Counted from the first letter of the stretch, positions 5,032 through 61,348 are shown. The stretch: 64,000 nt of DNA from Candidatus Latescibacterota bacterium (GCA_963791045.1 CAWBQK010000010.1:47839-111838), one strand, 5' to 3'. The notes: generated from the letters alone by a model not told the origin. Numbers and translations are program-made.

Positions 5032-5044
5032 CGTGTCACTCCGT

Positions 5045-6196
5045 TTACCGAATGACCGCAAACGATGCCCTGGCCGTATTCTTGATCGAACCGCTTCCCG
5101 CTCCCCCGGAGACCGCGATGATATAGACACCGCCGCCGACCGTGTCGCCGCGATCATCTTTGAAATCCCACTCGATCCCGAACTCGCCTTGCGAAAAATC
5201 GACAGGTTGATCGTCGATCAAATTGCGGACGGCATACCCCGCCGATGAAAACACCTTTGCCGTCACATAGACCGGCTCCGTGTAATCATCCGTATCGAGC
5301 ACCACCGGAAATGTCGCCGGGACACCGTCCGACGGCGACAGGAGTTTCTTCTCCAGCTGAATTCTTAGCGAGAACACCTGTCTCACCGTCGTGTCCTGCG
5401 CATCCGCTGATACGGCGTACGTCGCCTCGACCCTCGGCGAGATTCCCATATCGAGGATTCCATCCGAATCCGAATCGAGCGGAATTCTTACATGATTGTC
5501 GGTGATTGCAACGCGTGTCGAATCGTTCTCGAGGACAATAGAAGGATCGGGTGCGGCGTCACCCGCCCCGGTGCTTTCGCCGCCCGTAATGACGGCGAGA
5601 ACGCCGAGGACCGGCTGCCCGGGCGGAACACGAACCCCCTCGGGCGCACGTTCATAATCGCCAAGCTGGTCCCACGGTATCGCCACCTCGAGTGCGCCGC
5701 CGTTCACCCCATCCTGGACATACATCGACTGGTACTTCCCGTCCTCGATCAGATTGAATGGGCTGACACAATCGACATAACCCACAACCGGCTCAGGAGA
5801 CGTCCGGCTTACGCGCAGCAGGAGATTCGGGGACATTCCGCCAAATTCGATATTCCTCCGAAAATACTCCTGGGTGGCGAGATTCTCGACGCCGCCACAG
5901 GACACGTCGAGAAACAACATCAAAGTGCTCGTCATGGTAACGGCGGGTACAGCCACGTATATATTGTAATTATCCCATGTTACGGCAATCGCTTCGACCT
6001 CGTTATCGCGTCCCCAACGGGAATCTCCTGGGCGTTCGCGAAACGCCGTCGCCGAGTCGAGCACCCACTCGTCATCCTCAAAGTCGACGGGGCTGCCATC
6101 GATGATTATGCGGGAACGGAGGTCGGGGGCGGTCGCTCCATAAACCGCCCCTGTGTGGAGGAGCAAGGCCACAGACAGAAGAATAGCACGAATCAT
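5045..6196 (-). CDS. Secreted protein with DOMON/CBM9-like N-terminal domain and FlgD-Ig-like C-terminal domain
   Basis: Signal peptide; IIIDG..DF, AVTWDNYNIYVAV..LFLD, LEVAIPWDQLG; DSDSDG; C-terminal VFSSAGYAVRNL..EWDFKDDRGDTVGGGVYII. Confidence 0.6.
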   Translation of the reverse strand: MIRAILLSVALLLHTGAVYGATAPDLRSRIIIDGSPVDFEDDEWVLDSATAFRERPGDSRWGRDNEVEAIAVTWDNYNIYVAVPAVTMTSTLMLFLDVSCGGVENLATQEYFRRNIEFGGMSPNLLLRVSRTSPEPVVGYVDCVSPFNLIEDGKYQSMYVQDGVNGGALEVAIPWDQLGDYERAPEGVRVPPGQPVLGVLAVITGGESTGAGDAAPDPSIVLENDSTRVAITDNHVRIPLDSDSDGILDMGISPRVEATYAVSADAQDTTVRQVFSLRIQLEKKLLSPSDGVPATFPVVLDTDDYTEPVYVTAKVFSSAGYAVRNLIDDQPVDFSQGEFGIEWDFKDDRGDTVGGGVYIIAVSGGAGSGSIKNTARASFAVIR

Positions 6197-24115: not shown

Positions 24116-26289
24116 TTACTTGGAAGGGCTGGTCATTTCTTCAACAATGAAGGAAAAATCTGCATATCTCGAAAACAAGATAAAAACCGCCGCCAGAAAC
24201 GCGTGCCGGCTTTCCCGCAGCCGTTTGTCGTCGCAGTTGACGAGGACCTTGTCGAAATAGGCATCGATCGTCGGTCCCAACTCGGATAACACCGCTAAAA
24301 CAGAGGAGATATCATCCGCGGCGTCGAATTTGGCCATCCGCGGGACCACACGTCGGATTTCCTCGAAAAGGGCGGTCTCGGCGTCCTCCTCGAAGCGGTC
24401 TGCGTCGATCACGGCGCCGCCGGGGAGCGAACCGCCGCCCACCCAGGCGTTCTCGAGCGCGTCCCATTTGACGCCATAGGCCTTCATATCCTTGCCCAAA
24501 ATGTTCCCCACCCGCTTTGCGCCGGTTATCAATAGCTCGAAGGCTTTGTCGCCGCGGAGCTTCTGGACGGCCCTGGCCCTGTCGAGCGCGATTCCCGGGG
24601 TCGACCACGCAACGGCGCCCACGGCGCCCACCACATCATAGGCAATCCCGTTGTCCTTGAGGAACGTCTCCGTCCGAACCCGGAAAAAGTCGATCAGCTG
24701 GGCGAGAACTTCGTCGCGGGCCTTGTCCTTACCAAGCCCCAATTCCTCGTAGGCCTCGAGCGATTTCTCGACAAGCGGATAGATCGACACCGACGGCATG
24801 TTTCTCAAAATTCGGACCAGACCCGTCGCCTGGCGCCTGAGCGCGTAGGGGTCCTGGGAACCCGAGGGAATCAACCCCGCCAGGAAACACCCGGCGATAG
24901 TATCGACACGGTCGGAAATACTCAGTATCGCACCGAGACGCGTTTTGGGAAGGTCATCCCCGGGCGTCCGCGGCATATACTGCTCGCTGATCGCGGTCAC
25001 GACATCGTTGTCCTGCCCCGCTTCCCTCGCGTAATGGCTTCCGATGAGGCCTTCGAGCTGAGTGAATTCCTTGCCGTCCTTCACCATCTCGCTCGCAATA
25101 TCGGCCTTGGCGAAACGCGACGCACGGCGAATCTGATCCTCGGCTACACGCTTGTCAGGCGGCGCCATATCGTTTATCGCGCGTCCAAGCGCCGTCACCC
25201 GTTCGGCCTTGTCGGACAATGTGCCCAACCCCTCGATAAACACGATCGACGAAAGTTTTTTCGAAAGCCCGTCGATCCCCGTCTTGAGATCCTCCTGCCA
25301 GTAGAAGAGAGCGTCTTCGAGCCGTGCCCGCAGCACCTTTTCGTTGCCCTCGCGGACGAGCGAGGGCGAGCCCGCCTTACGCTCGGTGAACGTGAGGAAT
25401 TTCGGAACGAGCTTATTGGAGCCCGATCTGAATGCGAGGTAACGCTGGTGCGCTTTCATCGCCGTCGTCACCACTTCGGGCGGAAGCTTGAGGTACGCCT
25501 TATCGAAATCACCAACAAGCGGGTCAGGCGATTCGAGCATAAAGGTAAGTTCGTCGAGGAGCGAAGCGTCTTCGATGATCTCCATACCGAGCGTCTTCGC
25601 CGTCTTCGCCGCAAGCGCCTGGATCTTGTCGCGCCGCTCGGCATGATCGACAATAAGACCGGCGCCGGCGAGCGCGGCAAAGTAATCGTCGGGACCGTTA
25701 ACTTTGTACTTGTCGTTTCCCAGCCAGGGGATAAACCGCGTCACACTGCCCGTCTTTACGCCGGCGATCTCGAAACGGATCACTTTGCCGCCGTAGAGAC
25801 AAACCATCCAGCGAATCGGGCGCGCGAACCGCGTCCCCGACGCTTCCCACTTCATGAGTTTCGGGAAACGCAACCCCGTGATCAACCGGGGAGGAGTTCC
25901 TTGAGTATCCCCGCGGTCTTTTCTGATTTCAACTTCCTTGTAAACCCGACATATTCGCCGCGGTCGGTCTGAATGCGCTCCAGCTTGTCGACGGCCACTC
26001 CCTGCGAGCGGGAGAAACCGAGCGCCGTTTTTGTAGGCTCGCCGTTCTCATCGTACGCCTTGGATGTGGGCGGCCCGGTGACGAGTTCGGTCGAGCTTGT
26101 CTGCGATCCGGCAAGCCCGCGGACTACGAGAACGAGACGCCGCGGAGCGCCGGTGACATAGATGCTCTCGAACGGAAGCCGCAGTTCGTCAAGCTTCGCC
26201 CCGGTGTCTTTTCCAAGTTGTTCAAACGCCTGGCGGATCGACGCCGGCGGAAGGTTTTCACAACCGATTTCCAGAAGCAGGTCTTTCAT
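24116..26289 (-). CDS. glyS: Glycine--tRNA ligase beta subunit (split by a 1-nt frameshift at ~25885)
   Basis: [18 protein letters not shown] then FPKLMKW...[31 protein letters not shown]; follows glyQ. Confidence 0.93.
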
Positions 26290-48097: not shown

Positions 48098-48862
48098 ATG
48101 ACAGAAACGTATAAAAAGATAGCGGCCAGCGAAGTGTTTTTTGTCGCTGACAGCCACTTCAGGGACCGGGCGCTGCCCGGGGAAGCCGAGCGCAGGGACC
48201 GTTTCGCGCGGCTCCTCGAAACGGTCCCCTCGGACGGGGCCGTATTCCTGTTGGGCGACATATTTGATTTCTACTTCGAGTACAAGTCGGTCGTGTCCAA
48301 GCGGTACTTCGACATCTACCACGCGCTCTACGAGTGCTCGTCGAGGGGCGTCGAAGTGCACTTTCTCGGTGGGAACCACGACTACTGGTTCAACAATTTC
48401 CTCGAGGACGAGATTGGCGTGGCTTCGCACGGCGAACACCTGTTCGTCGAGTGCCAGGGACGCCGGATCTGGTGCACGCACGGAGATCTCTTCATGCCGG
48501 GTGACGAAAACTACACTACCGTCCGGTCGATCCTCCGGAATCGGTATGTCATCGCCGCGGCGAAGATAATTCACCCCGATCTGATGGACGCCATCGCCAA
48601 GAAGGTCTCATACGGGAGTAAAGCGAGGGACAGGGGATCTGTCGAAGACATGGCCAACCAGCTCGCCGCCAGGCCAACCCAGCAATTCTTCTCGCGCGGT
48701 AACGACGTGTTCGCCATGGGGCACGTCCACTACCCGCTCCACCAACAGAAAAACGGCAACGATTTTCTGATCGTCGGCGACTGGATCACAAAATTTACCT
48801 ATGGATTGATGAAGGACGGCCGGATCTCGCTGGAGACCCTCAGTTCCGGAGAGACAGACTGA
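48098..48862 (+). CDS. lpxH: UDP-2,3-diacylglucosamine diphosphatase (LpxH-like)
   Basis: ADSH, LGDIFD, GNHD, HGD, MGHVH, VGDW. Confidence 0.82.
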   Translation: MTETYKKIAASEVFFVADSHFRDRALPGEAERRDRFARLLETVPSDGAVFLLGDIFDFYFEYKSVVSKRYFDIYHALYECSSRGVEVHFLGGNHDYWFNNFLEDEIGVASHGEHLFVECQGRRIWCTHGDLFMPGDENYTTVRSILRNRYVIAAAKIIHPDLMDAIAKKVSYGSKARDRGSVEDMANQLAARPTQQFFSRGNDVFAMGHVHYPLHQQKNGNDFLIVGDWITKFTYGLMKDGRISLETLSSGETD

Positions 48863-49754
48863 TCCGGTGGCTGTCGCCGAGGTCGTTGCTCCCCAGTAGC
48901 ATCCCATAGTCAAAATCGAACTTCCGGTACCGCACACCCAGGCCGAACGTCGCGCCCTGGGAATCGTATCCCCCCTTGAAACCCGCACGAAGGAACAACA
49001 GACGCGAGTAACCATACTCGGCGCCAATGTGCTGTTTGGAGTTGCCGTCATTGGGAAAGATGACATCGAGCGTGAGAAGAATGTCCCCTTTCAGGGTCTC
49101 GACGTGGCGGTCATAGCTACCGCCGATCTTGAACATGCGCGGCAGCGCGAACTCTTCTTCAACGAACTTCATCGGCGACCCGAGATTCGCGAGCACCGCG
49201 GCAAACTTGACACCCTCGATCCGGCTCACATGATAAACACCAAGGTCGAAACCCAATCCACTCGCGGACGAGTTATCGATTTTCTGGTATATCGGTTTTA
49301 CCGCGACGCCAGCAGAGAGGTTCGGGAGAAAATAGCGCGAATAGGCCAGTGCAAACGACACGTCGTATGCGCCAAACGTCCCCAACGGCACTTCCGACGG
49401 CGTATCCTCGTACCGGTCCATGTCGTCCATGTAAAGTCCGGTAAAACTGATACCAAACGTGCCGTAGTCGGTCTCATGCGTAACGGCGAGCTGCTCAAGA
49501 CGGACGGACTGGAAATACTCGTTATGAGTAAACATCATGTTGGTTCCGAGAACGGGACTCATCGCGGCGGGATTCCAGTATACCGACGACGCGTCTTTTG
49601 CGACCGCAGAGAACGCCTCACCCATACCGGCCGCACGGCCGCCCATACCGAGACGGAGGAACAGCGCTCCCGAATCGCCGGGATCACCCGCTAGAAGACT
49701 CGTCGGCATGACGAGAACAAGAAGCAATAACACGAGGTGAAGGGTTTTTCGCAT
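48840..49754 (-). CDS. PorV/PorQ (UPF0164) family outer-membrane protein
   Basis: FLRLGMGGRAAGMGEAFSAVAKDASSVYWNPA; C-terminal LGDSHRISL; AAGGAGA RBS. Confidence 0.85.
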   Translation of the reverse strand: MRKTLHLVLLLLVLVMPTSLLAGDPGDSGALFLRLGMGGRAAGMGEAFSAVAKDASSVYWNPAAMSPVLGTNMMFTHNEYFQSVRLEQLAVTHETDYGTFGISFTGLYMDDMDRYEDTPSEVPLGTFGAYDVSFALAYSRYFLPNLSAGVAVKPIYQKIDNSSASGLGFDLGVYHVSRIEGVKFAAVLANLGSPMKFVEEEFALPRMFKIGGSYDRHVETLKGDILLTLDVIFPNDGNSKQHIGAEYGYSRLLFLRAGFKGGYDSQGATFGLGVRYRKFDFDYGMLLGSNDLGDSHRISLSLRN

Positions 49755-49767
49755 GGTCCGTCTCCTT

Positions 49768-52700
49768 TTAGCGGAGTATAGCAAAATTCTTGACGAAAGA
49801 CTCGGATCCGCCGCCCGATTCGACGACCATCCTCAGCATATAAACGCCGCTTTTTAATTGTGTCACATCTATCGCCTCGTCGAACGGTGTATTTGACGCA
49901 TCAGCCGGATTGCCCGTCTTGGACAGATCGGTGACCCGTTCGCCTTCGAGGTTATAGATTTCGACCCGAACCGTCGATGTCTTGTTGAGAACGATTCGCG
50001 CATGAACCTCGCCGTCTCTAACCGGGTTTGGATAAATCTTGAACGACCCCGATTCCACGACCCCGGCCGCCGAAGCGGGTGGTGAATTGTCGGCCAGTCG
50101 TCCCTGCCGGGCGAGCCCATGCTGGTATGAAAGCCAATCCCAGTCTCCGCCCATAATCGACCCGGGGAGAGACTGGATGGACAGCGACATCATCGGAACC
50201 GTGAGAACCGAATCGTACACACCATCAATTGTGACGATCGGGTGCACCAGGCCGAGACTCACGAGGCTCATTTCATCGGTTCCCGCCAGGTCGGCGATCA
50301 TCGGCGTCGCGACAATGCCGTCGGGGGCTTTTCGCGGGGAACCCGCGACACGCGCGCCGTTCGGAGCAAAGCCATGGATGGCGCCGTCGCCCCACGGATA
50401 GAGAATTTCTACCCCGTCATTTCCATCGATATTCGCGACCATCGGGCTCGCGAGGATCGCGTCGAAGTAGAGCTCGGGAAAATCGCCGAGTTGAGTTTGA
50501 CGAAGCGGCTGTGGCCAATTGGTGCGCAACCGCGCGTTGTGCTCGAAGATATAAAAGTTGTCATCGTCCAAGAGGACGATTTCGATAGTCCCATTATTGT
50601 CTACGTCGCCGAGCGCGGGCGCCGAAGGGCTCCCCGAGTTGAGTGCGACAAGTTCGATAAGACCATCCGTCGATTCGCCCTCAGCCGGAACCCGGCCGTG
50701 CCGATTGAAAACGGCGAGTCTGCCGTCGAGCAACGTAAATACCGCTTCGTCAAAACCGTTGTGGTCGAGATCGCCCGTCACGACCGGCGAAGCCGCGGGG
50801 AAATCAACGGGCAGCGGCAACTCCGAAGCCCAGGTCACGGAAACCGGCGTCAACGGCGCCGCCTCTCTCCGAAATTTCACCGGAAAATACGAGAACCCAT
50901 AAAAGCCGCTTGTGGTATCGGACCAGACGAACGCAACGCCTTCCGTGTCTTCGCCGGCGTGTCCCAATGCGCCGTAACCGGGCGGCGACGAGGTCTGGGC
51001 CCTGATGCTTCCACCCCAGACGATCGAGAACGAAGCCCCGATCAGCTGGTTCCTGACACCCGCGCCATTTACAAAACTCACGCGAAGCGAGTCGGAAACA
51101 TGTTCGATAATGACTATCTCGAGGACCGAGTCGTCGTTGACGTCGATAAGCATCGGCGGGGCGGCCAGCGGCAGACCGGCGAAAAGCACGCCGTCTGTTT
51201 GCGCGTCACCGTCTCCGTCAAAAACCTCCGACCCATCCCGCTTCCACGCAAAGACGCGTCCCTGGGGATCGGCGCCGATAAGATCCACGCCCCCATCGCC
51301 GTCTATATCCCCAAAGGCCGGTGGTCCAATCCACATGGCATCGGGCGCGGGTATATAGGGATCGATCGTTTCAGGGTTGCCGTCTCCGTCGACGAATTCT
51401 CCGCCGTCACCATTGAAAGCGTAGACCCCGGCCAGATCGGCAAAGACCACGATCTCAAGACCGGCCGCGCCGTCAAGATCGATCGCCGAAGGCGGCTGAT
51501 AATCGCCCGTCGCGATCCACCGGGTTCGTTTGTCTTCGAAGGGAGCGGCGAATGATATGGAACAGGTCATAATCGGACCCGTCTCGGAAATGTCGGTTAC
51601 CGTGATCCCGGTAACGGCCCCGGCGTTCGAGAAACTCCCCGGACTGGTGTCGGGACCAAAGGTTGTATTATTTCCCACACGGTATGTGTCGAAATGGCTG
51701 CCGAACGAGAACGGATCCTGGAGACCGTCGAGGTCCTGGACGCCGTCGGCTTCTTCGAGATCGACGCCTTTTCGCGACACAAAATCATTTGGCAAATAGC
51801 CGGTTTGTATCATTTGACGAATGACGTTTTCATCGACGTGCCACACATACATCCCCGTCCCCGTGTGGATAAACGGCACGACGGCGTTGTAGATGTCCCG
51901 CTCTTCCTGGAGTACGAACGGATCTGTCAAAACCGTCAAAAAGAAATCAAACTCGGCACCATCGAGCGAGTCGGTGTTGTCGGGGAAAAAGTTTGAATCG
52001 AGATCGGAGAAAGTAAACAAGCTGTCGAAGTTCTCGTCGTGCACGCGGTTGGTAACGAGATAATATTCGCTCTCCGTAATGGGAATCTTTATACACGCCG
52101 TGTCCCCGTCGACGGGCGCATTGAGATCCCTGAGCTGATAGTTCCCCTCTTCCTCCACGACGAGCGGATCCACCCACCCGGCAAGGATACGGTTGAACAC
52201 GCTGGGAAATGCCGGAACAAACCCCGGCATGATCCGCAGATCGGGTGTCACAGGACCGTTGAAAAGACCCGACGACATCACATCGAAGTTGCCGAGGCCA
52301 CGCGAATCAGCAGCCCCCGCCGGCTCGCTGTCAAACAGCGGCAGAAGTCCGAGACGGCTGGAAACCTCGAACACCCACACACCGAGAGATCCGATGGTGA
52401 AACCGTCCTGGCTCGAACTCTCAGGTACAAGCATAAAGTTGTCTACCATGAACGGCTCACCGTTCAAGGAGTCATTGGTTGCCAGACCGTACACGGTGCT
52501 GTCGGGGAACGCGAAATTAATATCCGTCCGCGAGTAAAAACTCGACCAGAGTTGTTCCCGCGAGTCGTCGAGGACGTCGGTTTCCTGCCCGGCGCCCGCG
52601 TGGATCAGCATCACCGTCTCGTACAGAGCAAAGTTGATATCCGCATCGGCGGAATCGATCACCGACTGCATCAACTCGATAGCACGGTAATCCTGGAGAT

Positions 52701-53163
52701 CATCGTCACCGTAATAATTCATCTCCTGGGGGAGGTTGTAGATCTTATTCGTAACCTCCCACCGCACGGCGAAGTTTTTTCTCGATGCCCCGTTGAAGTA
52801 CTGGTGTACGTGTGCGAGTTCGTTGGCAAACCATGTTGAATCACGGAGCTCTTCCCGGATGCTCCCCTCCTGGCCTCCCATAAGACTGTCGGCAAACTGT
52901 ACCTGTATCCCGATGAGAACCAGTGTGTCCTGGACGACCGCCGTCCCGGCGAGATACCGGTTGAGAAGCTCACGCTGGTAATCGTTGAGGCGGCCCTCAT
53001 TGGCCGCGGTTCCCGGCGCCCGGACCGGTCCAGAGGTCGCCGTTTTCCCCGTTCTGTCACGGGGCGCGAACCTCGGAACGACCGATTCGGAAAAAGACTC
53101 GCCGACTCCAACGAGCAAAAAGACAAAACAAATAATCGGGAGAATAAAGCTGTTGGGTTTCAC
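49768..53163 (-). CDS. Secreted M6 (InhA)-like protein lacking HExxH, with FG-GAP repeats and T9SS-like CTD
   Basis: IHAGAGQE, DVMSSG, AGWVDP, EYYLVTNR, GMYVWHVDE, DLEEADG; DLDG/GDIDGDG/GDVDNNG repeats; YPNPV...IYNLEGE...LKSGVY; GTG start at 53163. Confidence 0.82.
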   Translation of the reverse strand: MKPNSFILPIICFVFLLVGVGESFSESVVPRFAPRDRTGKTATSGPVRAPGTAANEGRLNDYQRELLNRYLAGTAVVQDTLVLIGIQVQFADSLMGGQEGSIREELRDSTWFANELAHVHQYFNGASRKNFAVRWEVTNKIYNLPQEMNYYGDDDLQDYRAIELMQSVIDSADADINFALYETVMLIHAGAGQETDVLDDSREQLWSSFYSRTDINFAFPDSTVYGLATNDSLNGEPFMVDNFMLVPESSSQDGFTIGSLGVWVFEVSSRLGLLPLFDSEPAGAADSRGLGNFDVMSSGLFNGPVTPDLRIMPGFVPAFPSVFNRILAGWVDPLVVEEEGNYQLRDLNAPVDGDTACIKIPITESEYYLVTNRVHDENFDSLFTFSDLDSNFFPDNTDSLDGAEFDFFLTVLTDPFVLQEERDIYNAVVPFIHTGTGMYVWHVDENVIRQMIQTGYLPNDFVSRKGVDLEEADGVQDLDGLQDPFSFGSHFDTYRVGNNTTFGPDTSPGSFSNAGAVTGITVTDISETGPIMTCSISFAAPFEDKRTRWIATGDYQPPSAIDLDGAAGLEIVVFADLAGVYAFNGDGGEFVDGDGNPETIDPYIPAPDAMWIGPPAFGDIDGDGGVDLIGADPQGRVFAWKRDGSEVFDGDGDAQTDGVLFAGLPLAAPPMLIDVNDDSVLEIVIIEHVSDSLRVSFVNGAGVRNQLIGASFSIVWGGSIRAQTSSPPGYGALGHAGEDTEGVAFVWSDTTSGFYGFSYFPVKFRREAAPLTPVSVTWASELPLPVDFPAASPVVTGDLDHNGFDEAVFTLLDGRLAVFNRHGRVPAEGESTDGLIELVALNSGSPSAPALGDVDNNGTIEIVLLDDDNFYIFEHNARLRTNWPQPLRQTQLGDFPELYFDAILASPMVANIDGNDGVEILYPWGDGAIHGFAPNGARVAGSPRKAPDGIVATPMIADLAGTDEMSLVSLGLVHPIVTIDGVYDSVLTVPMMSLSIQSLPGSIMGGDWDWLSYQHGLARQGRLADNSPPASAAGVVESGSFKIYPNPVRDGEVHARIVLNKTSTVRVEIYNLEGERVTDLSKTGNPADASNTPFDEAIDVTQLKSGVYMLRMVVESGGGSESFVKNFAILR

Positions 53164-53224
53164 TGGGATTTCTTTCTGGTCAATAGGTCGCGCGATCGCG
53201 CGCGATAGCGTAAAGGGAAGAGAT

Positions 53225-53253
53225 AATCTAACATATACCCCCTTTTGGGGCAA
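53225..53253 (-). promoter_or_regulatory. Possible sigma70 promoter for the M6-like/PorV pair
   Basis: TTGCCC-17nt-TAGATT with TG. Confidence 0.4.
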
Positions 53254-53256
53254 CGG

Positions 53257-53322
53257 AAAAGGGGAACCGGTCTCAGTAAGCGCCGCCCCTGATCGGCAAT
53301 TACTTCAACTCGATTCCCCTTT
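53257..53322 (-). terminator. Long hairpin terminator after the DUF4384-like gene
   Basis: AAAGGGGAATCG...AGTAA..GCCG-loop-CGGC..TTACT...CGGTTCCCC followed by TTTT. Confidence 0.6.
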
Positions 53323-53428
53323 AACATGGTCGGCCTCACAAACCAGCCTGCTTGTGTCGCTCCTCACTTTTGAGCGATTCTTGCTACCAGCCAACCAAAC
53401 CCGTCAGCAACGATGGGGTTGAACCCTT

Positions 53429-54688
53429 CTAAGACTTCGTACGCTTTTTGATCGTCGTCTTTTTGACGGTCGTTCTTTCGTTCCGCACGACGTCTTGACT
53501 TGCGCTTTTACGCGCAGGTTTTTTCTCAACTTTGGTTCTGTTCGACTTCGCCGATTCGCGCTTTGTGTTCGATTTCTTCACGACTTCTTTTGATTCGAGC
53601 TGCCGGCGGATCTTCGCCGAGTTCTCTTTGCTCTTTATAAAGTCGTCGCGAGAGGATCGAACCACGCGGTTTTTCCGCACGGTGTCCGATTGATTTACGG
53701 GCCTGACCGTCGTCGAACGGCGAACGACCCGCTGCGTTTTCTCAATTGTTGGAGCGGTTGTTATCCGCTTTTTCCCTTCGATAGGCCGTACGCGACGCTC
53801 GGCGCCCGCGCCCTCCCGGAACTTCCGGTTATCGGGATGCGACGGCTTGCGGCGCTCATCGGCCCTGGGATCCCGCACCCGGACATCATTTATGTCCTTC
53901 CCACCGGTGCGGTTGATTCGCGTGTATTCCGCATATTCGTTCCGGACCTCAACGGTCGGTCGAAGCACTCTGTACGGGTCCCGTGTGTGAACCCGATAGT
54001 GCCTGTGCGCGGCACAGTGGCCGCCACAGTGCTGGTGCCATCCGACACAGAGATAGCTCGGATAGCGGACATATTCCCTGACATAGAATCTCGCGTAGCT
54101 CACGGCCACATGGCCGCGGCGGCATCCGTGAGGAAGGATCGAGAGATAGAATAGTTTCGAGGCAACAAAAGGGTCACCGTAAACCTGGAAACCGATCCTC
54201 GGCCCAAACACTCCCACGCCATACGATGCATAACTGAACGGGACCGGGCTCGAAACGGCGTACGCAAACGCAACGCCTCGACCAAAATACCCGTCGTTGA
54301 AACCGTAATCGCGAAGGTCGAACCTGTACACCCTGCCGCCGACGAGAAATGCGTTGTCGCGCGGAGAGAGCGGATGAATCACGTGCAGGAAGCCCTCGGT
54401 GTCAATTACGTAAACGGTCGTGTAACAACTTCTCGACGCGCGGACATTGAGGACCACGTCGTCTGAGCTCGCGTACACATCGTATGCATATCCGGTGCCG
54501 TTATCGTAATCGTCATAATAGGTGTTGTTCCCATACCCCTCGTCCAGCCACACCCTCACATCGACCGGCGCCGAAGAGTAGACCAATTCTACTCTGAGAC
54601 CCGCGTTCGAGTTGGCAATCCATGCGGTGGAGAGCACCAGGGTTGCGGCGAAAACCAGAAACATCATCTTGATAGCTGTTGATCTCAT
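53429..54688 (-). CDS. Exported DUF4384-like protein with His/Cys patch and long basic tail
   Basis: Signal peptide; VDVRVWLD, VRASRSCY..VYVIDTEG.LHVIHP, YAVSSPVPF; Arg/Lys-rich C-terminus. Confidence 0.65.
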   Translation of the reverse strand: MRSTAIKMMFLVFAATLVLSTAWIANSNAGLRVELVYSSAPVDVRVWLDEGYGNNTYYDDYDNGTGYAYDVYASSDDVVLNVRASRSCYTTVYVIDTEGFLHVIHPLSPRDNAFLVGGRVYRFDLRDYGFNDGYFGRGVAFAYAVSSPVPFSYASYGVGVFGPRIGFQVYGDPFVASKLFYLSILPHGCRRGHVAVSYARFYVREYVRYPSYLCVGWHQHCGGHCAAHRHYRVHTRDPYRVLRPTVEVRNEYAEYTRINRTGGKDINDVRVRDPRADERRKPSHPDNRKFREGAGAERRVRPIEGKKRITTAPTIEKTQRVVRRSTTVRPVNQSDTVRKNRVVRSSRDDFIKSKENSAKIRRQLESKEVVKKSNTKRESAKSNRTKVEKKPARKSASQDVVRNERTTVKKTTIKKRTKS

Positions 54689-55554
54689 CGCGCACCTCCT
54701 TGCTCAGGGGTTAGCTCCGGGTTACCAGGACTCTCCTGGTACGCCCAATCCAGTACAACCAGGTCTAGACTGGCCGACTGGCAGTACACTTTCGCGTAGT
54801 AGTAGTAATCATCGCTTTTGTTGAGCATTTGAACTACGTAGCTGTGTCCCGGAATCATCTCAACCCGCTTGGAGGGAGACCAACCTTCCTCGATATCGGG
54901 GGCCCAATCAACGAAATCCAACTCGATGTATCCATAATCCTGAACGTCTACTCCGTCCCCTATCGAATTTCCCTTTCCAAACAGCGTAGGAATGCCGCTT
55001 GGGGAGCCGAAGTAGACGTCCGTCGTCGGATTATCCCAGGTCTGAACGGTGTATTTCGAGAAGTCGTAACCGCTCGGACCTGCGCTCTGCCCCAAATAGT
55101 CACGTAAGACAAGACCCGTACCCGCCGGACGCGGTGTATCAAAAATCACTTCGCTGGGTTCGCTTACCTGCCCAGCTCTGTTATATGCGCGAAGTTTGTA
55201 AAAATAGGTGAAACCATTATCAACATCAGTATCGACAAAGTAGGTTCGGTGCAAAGGAACCGACACCATGTATTCGAAATCACCGTCATATGCGTCGCTC
55301 CAGAAAATGTCGTAACCCTCGAGGTCCGTTTCTGTGTTGGCGTTCCAGTTGATCTCGATCCACTGATCCCCAGTAATACTATAGACGCCAGCTGGTGCGG
55401 CAGGCGGAGTGGCTACGATGACCGGGTCATCACAGTCGTCGCAGCACCCCGCAAGAAGTAAAATCGAAAGGATGGCGGCTGCCGCCAGCAGCTGTCTTGT
55501 AGCAACGATGAGGAATCGTTCAGTCGGGTAACTTATTCTCAGCAACGTTTTCAT
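54685..55554 (-). CDS. Lipoprotein with fibronectin type III domain
   Basis: Lipobox LAGC; PPAAPAGVYSITGD..IEINW.AN.E.DLEGY...NGFTYFYKLRAYN.AG..SEPS. Confidence 0.8.
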   Translation of the reverse strand: MKTLLRISYPTERFLIVATRQLLAAAAILSILLLAGCCDDCDDPVIVATPPAAPAGVYSITGDQWIEINWNANTETDLEGYDIFWSDAYDGDFEYMVSVPLHRTYFVDTDVDNGFTYFYKLRAYNRAGQVSEPSEVIFDTPRPAGTGLVLRDYLGQSAGPSGYDFSKYTVQTWDNPTTDVYFGSPSGIPTLFGKGNSIGDGVDVQDYGYIELDFVDWAPDIEEGWSPSKRVEMIPGHSYVVQMLNKSDDYYYYAKVYCQSASLDLVVLDWAYQESPGNPELTPEQGGAR

Positions 55555-55570
55555 TACAGCCTTCTCTAGC

Positions 55571-55585
55571 GCAAGCTACGTGCCA
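55571..55585 (-). promoter_or_regulatory. Sigma54 (-24/-12) promoter of the FN3-DUF4384 operon
   Basis: TGGCACGTAGCTTGC, an exact TGGCACG-N4-TTGC consensus. Confidence 0.8.
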
Positions 55586-55717
55586 CGAGTGAACAGAGGC
55601 CGCCCACAGCGGACAAATAGGCCATATATAATTGTTTTATAGAGTATTACGCTATTTTAGCGCTTGAGGATAATGCCCCAATTGAGCGCTTTTGACACTC
55701 GAAAGCACCTAAAAACC

Positions 55718-55755
55718 GTGTCTATCCATTGACACGTGTCCTGATTTTGGGACAC
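55718..55755. promoter_or_regulatory. Tandem palindromes, candidate enhancer (UAS) for a sigma54 activator
   Basis: GTGTC-N8-GACAC directly followed by GTGTC-N10-GACAC, ~135-170 bp upstream of the -24 element. Confidence 0.55.
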
Positions 55756-55860
55756 AGCACAAAGACGCTTTGATATGGGGATTTCAGGGTTTGAAAGGGT
55801 GGATACGGGCGTTTGACAGGGAGATTAAACGAGTGAGGATCGGCGAAACTGCGGGCATAG

Positions 55861-56132
55861 AAAAAAGCTGACGGTCACGACTCCAGGAGTTAATGTTCGA
55901 GACCCCACCTCTCGAAATTAACGGACTCCGCATAGCTGGCAGCTGTGCCTCTGGAGAAACCGTGACCGTCAGCTCTCAATGCAACCTGACGGTCGCAAAA
56001 CTTGTCGAGAAAAGCCTCTGAAAACTCTTCTCTGGCTCCGAAATCTAAGGACTTGGATTCTTGGGGAACGAGTCCCCAAGAATCCTTTCCCCCACCAGTT
56101 GGAAGTTCCTTACGCACGGGATGACTTCCGTA
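55861..56132 (-). ncRNA. Candidate sigma54-dependent structured RNA (~270 nt)
   Basis: Starts at the predicted +1 of a sigma54 promoter; 13-bp and 14-bp perfect stems plus smaller hairpins; ends in a stem followed by a U-run. Confidence 0.55.
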
Positions 56133-56143
56133 CATTTACTAGG

Positions 56144-56158
56144 GCAAGCCATGTGCCA
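56144..56158 (-). promoter_or_regulatory. Second sigma54 (-24/-12) promoter
   Basis: TGGCACATGGCTTGC (GG-N10-GC). Confidence 0.75.
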
Positions 56159-56203
56159 AGAATCGGCCAATCCGGGCAAAATGCAATTTTATATCTTCTT
56201 ATT

Positions 56204-56216
56204 TATCAACATGTTA
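56204..56216 (+). promoter_or_regulatory. IHF-binding site
   Basis: TATCAACATGTTA matches WATCAANNNNTTR, with an adjacent AT tract, ~50 bp upstream of the sigma54 site. Confidence 0.6.
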
Positions 56217-56401
56217 CACAGGTAGGCGCCGTCCTACAGCGTGTAAGAATCGTCTCTTATTAAAAACATTTCTACACGTCGGTGACGGACGCACCTGAAG
56301 CGCCTATAGAGAAAAGACTTAACAGCAGTTAATAATGGTTATAAAAACTTTTAATAGGGGCGACTATCGAAGCCTTTAATTGGACGCACGCTATCGTAGC
56401 C

Positions 56402-59400
56402 TTAGTAGACGCGGATGTTATACCGCTTGATCTTGGAGAGAAGACTGGGGTAGCTGACGCCCAGCTCAATCGAGGTTTGAGACTTGTTCCACTTGTTTCG
56501 CTTGAGCGCCGCGAGGATCTCACGCTTCTCGAGCTCTTCGATCTGATCGCGAAGCGATGCCCCGTTCGAACTCGAACCGTTGCCGCGCGAGGCATGAACG
56601 ATTTCGCTGGGAAGATGGGCAAGACCCAACACCTCGCCATCATCAGCAAGGATCACGGCCCGTTTGACCACTTTCTCGAGCTCGCGGACATTACCCGGCC
56701 AGTGGTACGACTGCAGGAGTTCCATTCCATCATCCGTCACATCCGTGACAATCTTGTTCATCTCTCTCGAGTATTTCCTCAGATAATGGAAGAACAGGAG
56801 CGCGATGTCTTCCTTGCGGTTCCGAAGTGGCGGAACGCGCAGCGGAAAATCGTTGATGCGGTAGAAAAAGTCCTCGAGGAAACGGCCCTCGTGACACTGC
56901 GTCATAAGATTGACCTTGGACGCGCAGATTACCCGGACATCCACCGGATGGAGATCATTTGACCCAACCTTCCTGATCTTGGTCGAATCGAGGAACTGAA
57001 GAAGCTTGCCCTGCATCGAGAGCGTGGTTTTGCCGATCTCATCAAGGAATATGGTCCCGCCATCCGCGCGCGCCAGCAGACCCTCTTTGTCATGAACGGC
57101 TCCCGTAAACGCTCCCCTGACGTGCCCGAAAAGCTCGGACTCGAGCAGCGACTCGGGCATCGCCGCACAGTTGACATGGACGAATTGCTTGTCGCGACGG
57201 TCGCTGAGCAGATGGACCGCGTACGCGATCAACCCCTTACCCGTCCCTGTCTCACCCTGGAGCAAGACTGTCGCGTTCGAATGCGCCACCCGCTCGGACA
57301 GGTTGAGAAGCTTGATCATGTCGTTGTTCTCGGTGAGAATACTCTCGAAACCGCTCGCCGTGGGCTTTACCTTTGGCTCCCGCCGCTTCTCATTCCTGAT
57401 CAACTCGAATATGGAAAGAGAAATCAGTCGCGCGTATGCTCCCAGGAAATGCAGCGCTTCTTGTCCTATCGGCGTGTGTTCTTCCTCGCGGTCCTGATGG
57501 ACAAAAATCACGCCCAGGGTTTCGTCTTCAAAACCAAGCCCCTGGAAAACGAGTGTTCCCCTATCGGCCCGAAGTTTCTTGCGAACGTCCTGCAACTCGG
57601 GTTCATGCCCCAGCTCGGCGATCTTGAGTCCGTGTCCGTTCATCGCTGTCGAACCGGTATCGCTTTTTCTGTACCAGCCGAGCAGCGCCCTTGCGTCACG
57701 CCGTTCGAGATCCTGCACGGCAACGAGGTCGAAACCCTCACCCGTTGACCCGGGAATGGCAACAAACCCGCTCTGAGCATTGAGTTTGCCAATTATCAGT
57801 TTGAGCGATGCCCTGAAGCCCCGTTACGAGCTTCTCACGAGATCGCGACGCGCTCTGGATATCCCCAAACATGGGGATTTGTTCGAGAACACGCCGTGTG
57901 TCACGAGCCATCTTACCCTCGACTCTGCCCCGCATCGCCCGGAGAACATGGAGGAACTTGCCGCTGCGCTCGTCCTCGGCCAGACGAGTCGCCTCATAAA
58001 GGGCGAGAAGCGCATCATCGAGATTCCCAAGACGATCCTCGACGGTGGCGAGCAACAGCTGCGAAAGGATCTGGTCTCCCGGCTCCTCCATCTTGTGGAA
58101 CCCGACGACCGTTTCGGTCAAAACCCGTTTGGCTTTGAGCGACGATTCCTGATCGTCTTTTTTGAGATAGATCCGGCCAAGCCTTTGCTGCGAGAGGTAC
58201 TGTTCGTAGGGATTGCCATATTTACTAAAAAGCTCGACGCTCTTATCGAGACTCTCGATCGCTGCGTCGACATCCCCCGCCCGCAACGCGCAGAGGCCGC
58301 GAGTGCGGTGGAAGTAGCCAACCTCGTAAAACTCGCCACAGTTGTTGGCGATTTCAAGCCCCTCGCTGATCATCTTCTTCGCACGACGGGTGTCGTTGAG
58401 CAGATAATGAACATCGGCAACCCGGCGCATGATCTCCGCCGAAATATCGCCTTCCGGAGCGAGCTGTTTGGCTTTTTTGAGTGCGTTATTCAGGTTGGCC
58501 AGCGCCTCCTGGAGACGTCCCCGGCCGATCATGAGTTCACCGAGATACTCGTCGGCGAGAATCGACTCACGGCCGTAACCCAGGTCATTGGCCAGCGCCT
58601 GACCCCTCAGGATGAGCTTCTCCGCCTTGCAGAACTCGCCGCACTGGACGTAAGTCCGGCCCTTCATCAGAACGGCCTTCGTAAGCTTGTTCTGATCGCC
58701 AAGACGCTCGGCCATGTTCGACGCATTGGTGAACGCGCTGAGCGCGTCCGTGAAGCGGCGAAGCTTGGCGTATACGACACCGAGGTTGAGTTGAACGCGA
58801 ACGAGATGCTGGGAGAGACCCAACGATTTCGCCAGTTCGAGCGACTTCGACAACGAAGCAAGCGCTCGGTTCCAGCGGCATGCGTTCTTGTGCAGCAATC
58901 CGAGGTTATTATAAACGTATGCTATGCCGATCCGGTCTTCGATCCGGCGGTAGGAAGACAACGAATCCATAAAGAAGTCTTCCGCTTCGCTGGTCAGACC
59001 CAAACGGTGGTAGCAGTTGGCGAGGAGAAGCTGGACATCGGCCACTTCTCGATGCTCGCTCGAGTGCTTGAGCCGGCGATAAGCGCTGAAACCAATCTTC
59101 AACGCATCATCGTAGCTCCCTTGAGAATAAAGGATGTGCGCCTCCCGGTAGTCGACTTTTCCGAGTGACTCGAGAGGGGCGTCGTCGCCAAGGAGGCCTC
59201 TTGCCTGATCGAGAAGCGTCCAGGCCTCCTTGTAATTCCCTTTTTTTCTGTAACAATCGCCGATCCGGAGGTAAATCCGGAAGCGATCGGGGAAGTCTTT
59301 AATATCTTGGGATTCCAGCGATTTGCTGAAGTACTCAATCGCGGTCGAGTAGTTTTCGGTGGAGAAATGCATCTGCCCGATCTCCTCGTTCGGCGAGAAA

Positions 59401-59468
59401 ACCGAGTCAGGTTGCTGCCTCCGCTTATTATGCTGAAGCCCGTCTTTATCGTCCCGTGCGTTAGACAT
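56402..59468 (-). CDS. Sigma54-dependent activator: TPR array + GAF-like + AAA+ + HTH (~1020 aa), one frameshift near 57815
   Basis: TPRs (AYVYNNLGLLH.., VQLNLGVVY..); GETGTGK, ESELFGHVRGAFTGA, FLDEIG, WPGNVREL, C-terminal HTH. Removing one G from 'CAGGG' fuses the two track ORFs (LQASLKLIIGKLNAQSGFVAI..VQDLERR). Confidence 0.88.
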
Positions 59469-59542
59469 ATTCTACTTAGGTTCTGTGTGCTCTCAGCGCG
59501 CCGAAAACAGTATACTTACGATTCCGTTAGTACACGTCGTTA

Positions 59543-59842
59543 TCAGTACAGTCTGAAAGTCAAGATGTACATCCGCCATACGTCTGCGAACCTGGCCCGG
59601 ACGATAAAGTCGGAAACCGAAGTATCTATTGGTTTCTTCTTACCATCCTTCACACCGGCCAGATCATCCGCGTCCCCATCGTCACCACTCCACGCCGGGC
59701 CTGAACCGCCCGTCCTGGGAGTGATAATTTGCATAGTGGGAGAGTCCTGTGACTCAGGGGATTTGGCAAAAGACGCAGTAGCTGGATACACGAGCACCAG
59801 AGCCAAGATGGCTGCTAGAGTGATCAACACTGCCCGTTTCAT
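59543..59842 (-). CDS. Small secreted protein / candidate signalling pro-peptide (99 aa)
   Basis: AAGGAGA RBS; signal peptide MKRAVLITLAAILALVLVYPATASFA; acidic GDDGDADDL core; hydrophobic/basic C-terminus. Confidence 0.75.
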   Translation of the reverse strand: MKRAVLITLAAILALVLVYPATASFAKSPESQDSPTMQIITPRTGGSGPAWSGDDGDADDLAGVKDGKKKPIDTSVSDFIVRARFADVWRMYILTFRLY

Positions 59843-59927
59843 CCGACCATCATCTCCTTCGGGGGCCTTCCGCCCCACATGTGGAAACAGATTACCACAA
59901 TAGGTGATCTGATTAGTATCTAAGAGA

Positions 59928-59956
59928 ATATTAACTAGTATCTTACGTTATGTCAA
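59928..59956 (-). promoter_or_regulatory. Sigma70-type promoter for the peptide/TPR-activator pair
   Basis: TTGACA-17nt-TAATAT. Confidence 0.55.
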
Positions 59957-59959
59957 GCC

Positions 59960-61348
59960 TCAGGCTTCATTTTCCCCGTTCTCATCGTCCTCCCGGCTCG
60001 GCTTGTACGATATTCCGTATTTTTCAAGCTTTTTATACAAATTACTCCGCTGCATTCCGAGTTTTCTGGCCGTCTTGCTCACGTTGTATCCATACGTCCG
60101 GAGTTTCCTCAGGAAGAACTCCTTTTCGACCGATTCCCGGAAATCGTTGTAAGTCTCTTTTTCGAGAAATTGCTCCTCAAGATTCTTCGCCGGCCCGAGA
60201 AGCGGAAGGTCTTCGACGTCTATTATCGGTTTTTGCGTGAGGATTACCAGGCGCTCGATGAGGTTTTCGAGCTCTCTTATATTCCCCGGCCAGTTGTACT
60301 CGAGAAGTTCGGACATTGCTTTCTTCGAAATCTTCTTTGGCCGCTGCCCGAGTTCCAGGCCTGTTTCCTTGAGAAAGTGATCGATGAGAAGCGGCATGTC
60401 CGACGATCGTTTTCTAAGCGGCGGGACAATAATGGGCACGACGTTCAATCTGTAATAGAGATCTTCGCGGAAGGTCCCTTCGAGACTCTCTTTCTGGAGA
60501 TCCTTGTTCGTCGCCGCGATCACCCGCACATCCACCTTTCGCGTCTCCGTCCCTCCCACACGCTCGAACTGCGATTCCTGCAGAACCCGCAGGACCTTGG
60601 CCTGGGCCGAGTGGCTCATGTCGCCGACCTCGTCGAGAAAAAGCGTGCCGCCGTCGGCCAGCTCGAACTTCCCCACCCGTCTCGATACGGCTCCGGTGAA
60701 GGCGCCTTTTTCGTGACCAAAGAGTTCGCTCTCGATAAGCTCTTCCGGGATGGCCGCGCAGTTGACTTCAATGAAAGCCTCTTTCGCGCGTGCGCTCATC
60801 TCATGCACCGATCGTGCGACAAGCTCCTTACCCGTTCCGTTTTCGCCGATTATGAGGATTCGTGCGTTGGTCGGCGCGGCCTTCTCGAGCGTCTCCATGA
60901 TGGCGAGCATTTCCGGATGATCACCAATGATCTTTGTTTTTCGCTGAACCGCTGCCTTTAAGGTGATGTTTTCGGTGATGAGTTTTCTCTGTGCAAGGCC
61001 GTTACGAATAACGAGCATCATCCGGTCTGCGTCGATCGGTTTTTCGATAAAATCAAAAGCGCCGAGACGCGTGGCCTCGACCGCCGTCTGGATGGTTCCA
61101 TGGCCCGAGATGATAACTACGGGGAGTTCGGGTTGCGTTTTGTGCAGGCGGGAAAGAACCTCGAGGCCGTCCATACCCGGCATCTTGATGTCGAGGAGCA
61201 CCAGGTCGACGACCTCGTTCTCCGCTTTCTGAAGCGCGTCGAGACCGTCCTCGGCAAGCAGCACGTCGTACTTCTCGTACTCGAGGAGCCGGCGAAGGGT
61301 CTCGCGGATCCCTTTTTCGTCGTCTGCAACTAAAATTGTTTTGGGCAT
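59960..61348 (-). CDS. NtrC/NtrX-family sigma54 response regulator (REC-AAA+-HTH)
   Basis: ILVADDE, LLDIKMPGMDG, GENGTGKE, HEKGAFTGA, WPGNIREL. Confidence 0.93.
   Translation of the reverse strand: MPKTILVADDEKGIRETLRRLLEYEKYDVLLAEDGLDALQKAENEVVDLVLLDIKMPGMDGLEVLSRLHKTQPELPVVIISGHGTIQTAVEATRLGAFDFIEKPIDADRMMLVIRNGLAQRKLITENITLKAAVQRKTKIIGDHPEMLAIMETLEKAAPTNARILIIGENGTGKELVARSVHEMSARAKEAFIEVNCAAIPEELIESELFGHEKGAFTGAVSRRVGKFELADGGTLFLDEVGDMSHSAQAKVLRVLQESQFERVGGTETRKVDVRVIAATNKDLQKESLEGTFREDLYYRLNVVPIIVPPLRKRSSDMPLLIDHFLKETGLELGQRPKKISKKAMSELLEYNWPGNIRELENLIERLVILTQKPIIDVEDLPLLGPAKNLEEQFLEKETYNDFRESVEKEFFLRKLRTYGYNVSKTARKLGMQRSNLYKKLEKYGISYKPSREDDENGENEA

Follow-up and report, generated by a model that had tools for sequence, protein, structure and literature searches.

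Does an enhancer-binding protein with a tetratricopeptide repeat (TPR) input region respond to the small exported protein encoded directly upstream of it, and what would the two control? The question is raised by positions 53,257 to 59,956 of a 64,000-nucleotide stretch of DNA (the window; GCA_963791045.1 CAWBQK010000010.1:47839-111838) from an uncultured sediment bacterium listed as Candidatus Latescibacterota, in which an earlier interpretation made from the DNA alone (the sequence-only reading) had seen a peptide-signalling circuit comparable to the RRNPP systems. The window genome belongs to Candidatus Krumholzibacteriia, and the cassette, every part of which lies on the minus strand of the window, is on balance probably a lineage-specific sigma-54 regulatory unit of this class. 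Comparative evidence indicates that the small protein and the TPR activator have been inherited and duplicated as a pair, that the small RNA (sRNA) encoded downstream represents a new, well-supported family, and that this RNA very probably pairs within the first codons of the activator mRNA. New here are the adjacency of the two genes in 31 of 31 pairs, a paralogous pair with a related core motif, and an RNA loop complementary to activator codons 3 to 6. The comparisons rest on 25 fetched loci from seven families; these relatives are kin, and counts across loci or genomes are therefore not independent.

The pair and the promoter in front of it comprise the following features:
59928..59956, minus strand: sigma70-like promoter (TTGACA-17-TAATAT) before the small open reading frame (ORF), from a promoter scan
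59543..59842, minus strand: small exported protein of 99 aa (ATG at 59842, stop codon ending at 59543), from ORF reading and alignment
57738..59468, minus strand: activator N-terminus, in which residues 1 to about 553 form a TPR superhelix and a frameshifted tail follows, from Pfam and AlphaFold2 (AF2)
57816..57822, minus strand: 1-nt insertion relative to the relatives that splits the activator gene, from alignment and three-frame translation
56402..57823, minus strand: C-terminal part of the activator, with a weak GAF-like domain, AAA+ with GAFTGA, and HTH_8, from Pfam and translation

The small ORF is preceded by a GGAG ribosome-binding site and ends, exactly as the sequence-only reading had it, 74 bp before the ATG of the TPR ORF (59468). 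Its product begins with MKRAV, continues with a hydrophobic core and an ASFA/KSP (AxA-type) site, carries an acidic core, GDADDLAG, and ends in a hydrophobic, Trp-rich tail. This agrees with the earlier description of a 99-aa Sec-exported protein, the signal peptide being judged by eye from an M-K/R-K/R start, hydrophobic core, and small-x-small site that are conserved in the alignment. All 25 loci encode such an ORF with the M-K/R-K/R start directly before the activator, with products of 91-119 aa (so that some relatives' proteins exceed 100 aa) and spacers of 42-89 nt. In the alignment, a variable Gly/Asp-rich middle part is followed by the core GDADDLAG(x)K and a hydrophobic tail, WWxYxxxxR. 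Residues G56, D57, and D59 are each conserved in at least 90% of the sequences, and the G-D-x-D core singled out by the earlier reading is nearly invariant. The dN/dS ratio is 0.19-0.48 (10 pairs). The protein has no Pfam or NCBIfam name, and the ESM Atlas returned only clusters of hypothetical small proteins. A profile built mainly from families f1 and f2 and run against 1.84 billion representative sequences gave 106 hits at E<=1e-3, 74 of them at E<=1e-10, all but one in proteins of 44-136 aa. It also gave hits in 78 of the 151 sampled genomes of the phylum (9/9 in f1, 16/17 in f2, and fewer in the remoter families).

The claimed linkage between the small exported protein and the TPR activator was upheld in the relatives. 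The 31 adjacent pairs comprise every case with listed coordinates for both genes, among them a second copy in genome G029, and in locus L041 the small ORF still abuts the activator with the gene for the neighbouring NtrC-type regulator (see below) 2.7 kb away. The sigma70-like promoter, likewise found where it had been proposed (59956-59928), is conserved as TTGAC(A/G)-N17-TATATT in 21/21 aligned loci, and one contig from an RNA library spans both genes. The window genome (G000) also carries a paralogous module:
L089 7063-10427 (G000 contig C11, about 225.1-228.4 kb): 105-aa ORF and a split activator

The N-terminus of the 105-aa ORF in this module is signal-like, its core is PGDADGIGGYKG, and its tail is hydrophobic; the ORF lies 1 nt before the second activator, which is in two frames, a TPR ORF of 502 aa and an overlapping AAA+/HTH ORF of 531 aa. 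Orthologs of the paralogous activator are single ORFs of 993-1022 aa. In five of the six paralog loci, the activator is preceded at a distance of 3-33 nt by an ORF of 109-133 aa with the core GDxxG[LI]xGYKF; in the sixth, L097, no small ORF was found before the activator. A cognate pair would be expected to duplicate together and to diverge in its core in this way, and the two proteins therefore appear to form one. The spacer between the two genes often contains a GC-rich hairpin without a U-tract (L030-L032, L035, L038, and L039), through which the small protein and the activator may come to be made in different amounts.

The second part of the cassette lies downstream of the activator and points back to it:
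56144..56158, minus strand: sigma-54 promoter P1 (TGGCAC-N5-TTGC), TGGCACatggcTTGC, from the motif
55859..56134, minus strand: structured sRNA of about 276 nt, the 5' end placed by the spacing from P1 and the 3' end formed by a stem and U-tract
59451..59461, minus strand: stretch of the activator mRNA predicted to be the sRNA target, ACGCACGGGA (codons 3-6; +8 to +17)

That a structured RNA is encoded here, as the earlier reading had proposed, is indicated by both folding energy and covariation. The minimum free energy of the window RNA is -123.5 kcal/mol compared with -87.9 +/- 4.75 for shuffled sequences (z = -7.5), and the 20 full-length copies (263-328 nt) share invariant blocks and a common architecture. 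Its 5' portion consists of hairpin H1 (GGAAGU/ACUUCC, loop CAUCCCGUGCGU), a single-stranded segment UGGUGGGGGA, the 13-bp hairpin H2, and hairpins H3 and H4, and its 3' domain, closed by the terminator stem, contains H6 and H7, the latter with a GGUGGGG loop. RNAalifold returned 40 pairs, 13 of them with compensatory changes. In a manual structure of 45 pairs, 95.2% of the alignment cells pair, versus 33-51% when the partners are slid, and 15 pairs change on both sides, a count reached by 0 of 500 shuffles. Helices H1, H6, and H7 and the helix flanking H7 show no two-sided change (the stems of H1 and H7 never vary) and are thus neither supported nor contradicted by covariation. In an alignment of 58 distinct sequences, which was fitted to the model, 98.2% of the cells pair, with covariation in 8 of the 12 pairs of the closing stem.

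It is extremely improbable that this region is instead a small protein gene or a cis-acting leader of the downstream lipoprotein operon rather than a trans-acting sRNA. An 81-codon ORF (55890-56135) does exist in the window, tblastn finds pieces of it in relatives, and the operon follows the RNA on the same strand. However, those pieces are in different frames, the longest ORFs in the relatives vary from 19 to 77 codons in differing frames and positions, and 12 of the 20 sequences have no ORF of at least 40 codons. The 81-codon ORF is not conserved and was rejected as a gene; the helices, in contrast, are backed by covariation. As for a leader, the RNA ends in a terminator, and the second promoter, P2, with its own enhancer stands between it and the operon. 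The distance from the RNA terminator to P2 is about 2.85 kb in L031 (genome G017), compared with about 0.2-0.5 kb in the other loci, which makes the RNA and the operon separable units.

The distribution of the RNA is narrow. Model R1, which covers the 3' domain, has under the stricter filters hits in 23 of the 151 phylum genomes (8/9 in f1, 14/17 in f2, and 0/124 in the other families), with one forward-strand match in each. The genomes that carry the RNA are labelled Candidatus Krumholzibacteriia or, under older labels, Latescibacteria or Latescibacterota. Across collections of genomes and metagenomes, an invariant 18-mer of the RNA was found at 92 loci, of which 67 also fit the model; the remaining ones are chance occurrences in other taxa. 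One full match to the sRNA model (103.4 bits) is on L072, a contig of a metagenome-assembled genome labelled Actinomycetota, which suggests that this contig is mis-binned or mislabelled. Rfam 15 gave no matches at E<=1 within 53000-60200, and only sub-threshold chance matches in eight further loci. Metatranscriptome contigs of one study cover positions 55906-56109 with 0-2 mismatches; stretches lacking such cover were given no weight.

Positions +8..+17 of the activator mRNA, ACGCACGGGA, are complemented exactly by the H1 loop, UCCCGUGCGU, a relation that the sequence-only reading had missed. Both partners are evolutionarily frozen, and a perfect complement of 9-11 nt occurs at this fixed place in 20/20 genomes. 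The best matches of the loop to the starts of the small ORF, NtrC-type, lipoprotein, and secreted protein genes are of 5-9 nt and scattered. The site also leaves its mark on codon usage: across the first 550 codons of 21 orthologs, only codons 4 (GCA) and 5 (CGG) are codon-invariant among the 56 invariant columns of residues with at least fourfold degeneracy, and none of the 38 invariant two-fold columns is. The site is absent from the activators of L040-L044, four of these five loci being in genomes without a match of model R1. The predicted duplex has an energy of -23.4 kcal/mol (z = -3.4 against 4830 start regions). Taken together, these data make pairing within the first activator codons very probable. 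Pairing inside the first five codons of an mRNA is known to prevent initiation, hence the prediction that the RNA represses its target. With the TPR activator acting at P1, this would amount to negative feedback; with the NtrC-type regulator acting there, it would be cross-inhibition.

The 4830 crude start regions screened with RNAduplex also include candidate targets with energies of up to -26 kcal/mol; the ribosome-binding-site filter of this screen excluded the activator, which was scored separately. Near possible start codons at C12:14537(+), C11:215096(-), and C6:177100(-) of the window genome, CGCACGGGA gives -24 to -25 kcal/mol with the RNA loop, and the respective genes are possible further targets. 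The loop stretch UCAUCC complements GGAUGA at the start of the small ORF (59838-59845, minus strand) in 5 of 20 genomes, which is too short to serve as evidence. The link between a TPR activator and a downstream RNA is further supported by the paralogous activator, which has a sigma-54 promoter about 235 nt after its stop codon in two genomes (L090 about 4815-5064 in G009, and L092 about 4786-5051 in G001), followed by a non-coding stretch of 250-266 nt with a C-rich block (GGUAUUCCCCCCCGG) and a terminator. This second candidate sRNA is clear in only 2 of the 36 genomes searched, and duplex folding of the long sequences of this RNA and the paralogous activator was uninformative.

Which regulator acts at P1 and at the promoter of the operon depends on elements upstream of them and on the neighbouring regulator gene:
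56339..56356, minus strand: AT-rich palindrome TATTAAAAGTTTTTATAA just past the activator stop codon, about 200 nt upstream of P1, a block in the 20-sequence alignment
55718..55754, minus strand: enhancer-like palindromes TGTCC-N8-GGACA and TGT-N10-ACA upstream of P2, from alignment
55571..55585, minus strand: sigma-54 promoter P2, TGGCACgtagcTTGC, 16 nt upstream of the lipoprotein start codon
59960..61348, minus strand: NtrC-type response regulator and sigma-54 activator of 462 aa (receiver, AAA+, and helix-turn-helix [HTH] domains), from Pfam

Both of the sigma-54 promoters that had been read in the window recur in the relatives: P1-like sites in 23/25 loci, 190-270 nt after the activator stop codon (about 245 nt in the window), and, among the 21 loci with a lipoprotein gene, P2 in 20, about 30 nt before the start of that gene. 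The upstream elements that the same reading had pointed out are also conserved, the palindromes as well as a TAAC-N17-19-GTTA element at about -75 to -45 of both promoters. The distal palindromes of P2 are at about -165 to -125, whereas P1 has the AT-rich palindrome instead. The genome has 43 strict sigma-54 promoter matches, compared with about 14 expected by our own arithmetic, and the TGTCC palindrome is found only at P2 among the 43. It also encodes RpoN (Sigma54_DBD, 220.2 bits, contig C15) and 17 strong matches to Sigma54_activat. The NtrC-type regulator (Response_reg, 117.5 bits; Sigma54_activat, 245.8 bits; HTH_8) has no adjoining kinase gene, and its gene is directly upstream of the small ORF in 24/25 loci. 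Since there are two activators and the distal elements differ, each promoter may have an activator of its own. A comparison of the recognition helices of the TPR activator (enhancer-binding protein 1, EBP1; SYPNLLSKIKRY), the paralogous activator (EBP2; PRTTLLAKMKRL), and the NtrC-type regulator (QRSNLYKKLEKY) did not point to a particular assignment.

The TPR protein appears from its domains to be a bacterial enhancer-binding protein of the NtrC/NifA class. Its N-terminal part matches TPR_12 (141.5 bits) and TPR_MalT (74.1 bits), and the AF2 model (pLDDT 86.7) has 13 helix pairs. Among the best 50 PDB matches listed by Foldseek, the TPRs of LGN/Pins are at the top (E about 1e-10, 19-21% identity), the remainder being OGT, APC/C, Tom70, and similar proteins, with no RRNPP receptor among these 50. 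The NNLG/NLG asparagines to which the earlier reading had drawn attention are present (N187 and N228, in NNLG and LNLG) and invariant in 25 sequences; they belong to the general TPR consensus and are not specific to peptide receptors. The AAA+ part (Sigma54_activat, 207.2 bits; AAA_lid_14; HTH_8) is intact, with GETGTGKG, GAFTGA, and DEIG read in translation. A phmmer search of the middle, GAF-like domain against PDB found nothing, and the activator has no membrane segment or periplasmic part. The protein was found in 40/40 relatives searched. In 31 of 38 orthologous matches it is in one open frame of 1012-1066 aa, the shorter matches being mostly at contig ends, and in the fetched loci it has 998-1038 aa in 23 of 24 cases and 855 aa in one.

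The single activator gene of the sequence-only reading is thus correct as to its TPR array, AAA+ domain, and HTH_8, and for the relatives, where one ORF encodes about 1020 aa; in the window it is two ORFs in different frames, 57738-59468 and 56402-57718. Three-frame translation shows that the TPR frame ends at 57738 and that the frame with the GAF-like start LKLIIGKLNAQSGFVAI... is open from 57823, and in a DNA alignment with three orthologs the window has one extra base near a GGGG run. This +1 frameshift is likely to be an assembly indel rather than a sign of gene decay, because the essential glyS gene and, apparently, an LVIVD-repeat gene of the same genome are split too, and because completeness is 80.9% in only 21 contigs. 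The gene for the beta subunit of glycyl-tRNA synthetase, glyS (24116-26289, minus strand), is broken into an ORF of 135 aa, matching profile positions 1-130, and one of 589 aa, matching positions 132-534. If the frameshift were real, the TPR activator would be a pseudogene or a split gene, and the circuit would be decaying or rewired. The paralogous activator of the same genome, which is also split near the TPR/GAF-like junction, speaks for this, as do the two window ORFs themselves. It is nonetheless unlikely, given the other split genes, the intact state of all other cassette parts, including the RNA target site, and the RNA-library contigs of a relative about 92% identical, which lack one base at 57816 (3 runs of one study). 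The sequencing runs each held at most 0.15 of the sampled words.

Downstream of the RNA, P2 precedes the genes of two exported proteins, beyond which lie further genes of the cell envelope:
54685..55554, minus strand: lipoprotein of 289 aa (AF2 pLDDT 81.3) that has a lipobox and, besides its Fn3 domain, a second beta-sandwich
53429..54688, minus strand: secreted protein of 419 aa whose sequence combines a signal peptide and a Cys/His-rich segment with a long basic tail and a weak match to DUF4384; its gene overlaps the lipoprotein gene by 4 nt
48840..53253, minus strand: context genes for an M6-like cargo (1161 aa) of the type IX secretion system (T9SS) and a PorV/PorQ-family protein, about 175 nt past the 419-aa gene

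Within the order, the arrangement RlmN / NtrC-type regulator / small ORF / TPR activator / RNA region / lipoprotein / secreted protein / M6-like protein is a recurrent one, and it is also seen, less strictly, across the class (25 loci, seven families). The lipobox is conserved in the lipoprotein orthologs, and a PDB fold search with the lipoprotein yielded only generic tandem Fn3 matches. The 419-aa gene, whose DUF4384 match (E = 2.8e-4) is below the cut-off, is syntenic in 20/25 loci. The sequence-only reading had taken these two genes for a terminated operon; neither a scan nor inspection by eye found an intrinsic terminator after the second, and the M6-like and PorV-like genes may or may not be within the P2 unit. 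The M6-like protein has a Por_Secre_tail, an M6 domain, FG-GAP-like repeats, and a T9SSA_dep_M6i match of 198.6 bits (cut-off 600), and its neighbour matches PorV_fam at 172.8 bits. NCBIfam holds paired models, T9SSA_dep_M6i and PorVQ2, both of which are matched below the cut-off at 48840-53253. Genes for HtrA, a sigma-70-family factor, an M23 peptidase, and an AmiC-type amidase are also nearby; together they give the neighbourhood an envelope theme. Because LpxH-like, PorV-like, and T9SS genes are present, the lineage is predicted to be diderm. As the earlier reading had stated, the window shows no peptide importer; no transporter was found among the 50 of its 53 ORFs that were scanned.

The arrangement combines motifs known from several regulatory systems. 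The Qrr sRNAs, driven by the sigma-54 activator LuxO, repress luxO translation in a feedback loop, as described in excerpts of PMC3730234. Similarly to LuxO-Qrr of Vibrio, where a sigma-54 activator drives sRNAs that repress its own translation, an sRNA behind a sigma-54 promoter has here a loop complementary to the adjacent activator mRNA; unlike there, the pairing is a predicted one, the input is TPR/GAF-like instead of the receiver domain of LuxO, and the RNA, of about 276 nt, has no sequence or Rfam relation to Qrr. Qrr RNAs are roughly 100 nt long. In CbrB-CrcZ of Pseudomonas and PxrR-Pxr of Myxococcus, the sRNA gene is immediately 3' of that of an NtrC-family activator, and the spacer between them holds a sigma-54 promoter and an enhancer region; CrcZ acts through Hfq/Crc sequestration (excerpts of PMC5113210 and PMC5684412, the former for CrcZ action). 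The layout of activator, sigma-54 promoter, and sRNA is the same here, with the promoter about 245 nt past the stop codon, but the RNA belongs to another family in another phylum, its conserved loop is complementary to an mRNA, and an exported small protein is encoded upstream of the activator.

The RRNPP systems were the model for the sequence-only reading. As outlined in excerpts of PMC10075063, they are recognized by a pro-peptide of 10-100 aa (21-50 aa in validated cases), a Sec signal, a receptor of about 250-500 aa, TPRs, and direct adjacency of the receptor and pro-peptide genes (-50 to 191 bp). The likeness lies in the small Sec-type exported protein encoded beside a cytoplasmic TPR regulator, and four of these five features appear to be present here, the 99-aa neighbour, a putative signal (judged by eye), the TPRs, and the 74-bp adjacency. 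In the arbitrium system (AimR-AimP-aimX), a non-coding RNA downstream is also the output. The differences are a receptor of about 1020 aa, an AAA+ sigma-54 output, a core motif conserved class-wide, a host predicted to be diderm, and a TPR fold nearest to LGN/Pins among the best 50 matches listed. The analogy thus holds for the linked pair and fails as membership on receptor size, output domain, and structural kinship; because receptor size and kinship fail, the system is best regarded as a combination of known motifs and not as an RRNPP member. The structures of LGN/Pins (GPSM2) hold extended peptides of Inscuteable, NuMA, and Frmpd in the inner groove of a superhelix of the TPR_12 type; these are eukaryotic scaffolds, however, and the likeness reflects a common repeat fold that is not informative about a bacterial ligand. 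The known inputs of sigma-54 activators are phosphorylation, small molecules, and partner proteins. The literature searched described no TPR-input sigma-54 activator tied to its own exported small protein and nothing that joins a sigma-54 enhancer-binding protein with tetratricopeptide and GAF domains.

The circuit suggested by these parts would run as follows. A single sigma70-type promoter would express the small exported protein and then the TPR/GAF-like/AAA+/HTH activator, which, alone or with the neighbouring NtrC-type regulator, would switch on P1 and P2; P1 would yield the sRNA and P2 the lipoprotein and the secreted protein; and the sRNA would pair with the first activator codons and lower translation, a negative feedback like that of Qrr on luxO. 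The small protein, or a fragment of it with the GDADDLAG core, would be read by the LGN-like TPR groove, either after export, processing, and re-uptake or by capture before export. That the small protein or such a fragment is the input is a substantial possibility rather than a probability. Several points weigh against the proposed circuit. Contact between the two proteins is something that we infer, and a complex prediction for TPR residues 1-550 and the mature small protein (27-99) from both alignments gave a score of 0.01, which carries no weight in either direction. By eye, the small protein has a canonical Sec signal, and the activator has no membrane or periplasmic part, so that direct contact would depend on re-uptake or on capture ahead of export. 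Class-wide conservation of the core motif also sets it apart from pherotype-type signals. The match to GAF is weak (GAF_3, E = 0.0095, below the cut-off), the activator gene is interrupted in the window, and the distal elements of P1 and P2 differ, as do the recognition helices of the two TPR activators. The RNA-library cover consists of contigs of one study without strand or ends, in which DNA carry-over is possible. The 10-mer target occurs 16 times in the genome versus about 10 expected; a match in a single genome is weak, and the case for pairing therefore rests on conservation.

The place of the small protein in this circuit could be seen in several other ways. It might never touch the activator, being a co-transcribed envelope factor, with the TPRs reading some other partner or the AAA+ ring; its partners might then be the lipoprotein or T9SS products, or it might provide the input to some kinase of the NtrC-type regulator. 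The Sec signal on the one protein and the lack of a membrane segment in the other place the two in different compartments, the NtrC-type gene is likewise kept beside the small ORF in 24/25 loci, and operon partners are often linked by pathway without binding each other. However, the adjacency to the TPR activator persists in L041, away from the NtrC-type gene, and in the paralogous module, and co-duplication is most simply explained by a specific pair, so that this role is somewhat unlikely. In a very improbable version, the TPR domain would capture the unexported precursor and the output would report export capacity or the state of the envelope rather than a returned signal, as in type III secretion chaperones or FlgM-type logic. 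It would fit with the two genes behind one promoter and the RNA-library contig that spans them, with a TPR fold that binds extended peptides, with outputs that are envelope proteins, and with the HtrA, murein hydrolase, and T9SS genes in the neighbourhood; yet such gating of Sec export is not known, binding of the precursor by the TPRs is an assumed step, and conservation of the signal-peptidase site and of the tail points to a role for the protein once it has been exported.

The opposite direction of travel, in which a pro-peptide is exported, cut, released between cells, re-imported, and bound in the TPR groove for density sensing as in RRNPP and arbitrium, is decidedly unlikely. In its favour are the four features listed above, an RNA output downstream as with aimX, a paralogous pair with a variant core, a fold of the peptide-binding LGN type, and at least three full SBP_bac_5 genes elsewhere in the genome. 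Against these stand the size of the receptor and the absence of an RRNPP receptor among the 50 fold matches listed, a core that is nearly invariant across the class and shows no pherotype diversity inside a lineage, the two crossings of the outer membrane that a released peptide must make, the lack of an importer among the scanned window ORFs, and a processing step that has to be assumed. A signalling module native to diderms and wired to sigma-54, in which an exported GD-x-D pro-protein is read by the TPR groove, with sRNA feedback and an envelope operon, is quite unlikely in this full form; paralogous pairs with variant cores would then be separate channels, and the whole an independent analogue of RRNPP/arbitrium and LuxO-Qrr logic. 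For the lineage-specific regulatory unit favoured here, the consequences differ by part. If the small protein is the input, peptide or protein sensing by cytoplasmic TPRs would extend beyond Firmicutes and their phages to a diderm candidate phylum. Regardless of the input, the cassette adds an sRNA family that is new and well supported, for which the opening codons of the neighbouring activator are a specific predicted target. The set of parts is compact (two promoters, two activators, one RNA, and one small protein) and could be rebuilt in E. coli even though the hosts are uncultured.

Other loci of the window genome resemble the P1-sRNA unit. Strict sigma-54 promoters without an ORF, followed 235-345 nt on by a stem/U-tract terminator, are found at C11:242820(+), C5:71548(-), and C11:401001(+) of G000, the first of them beside another activator gene (C11:244087-244587), and sigma-54-driven sRNAs may be common in the host organism.

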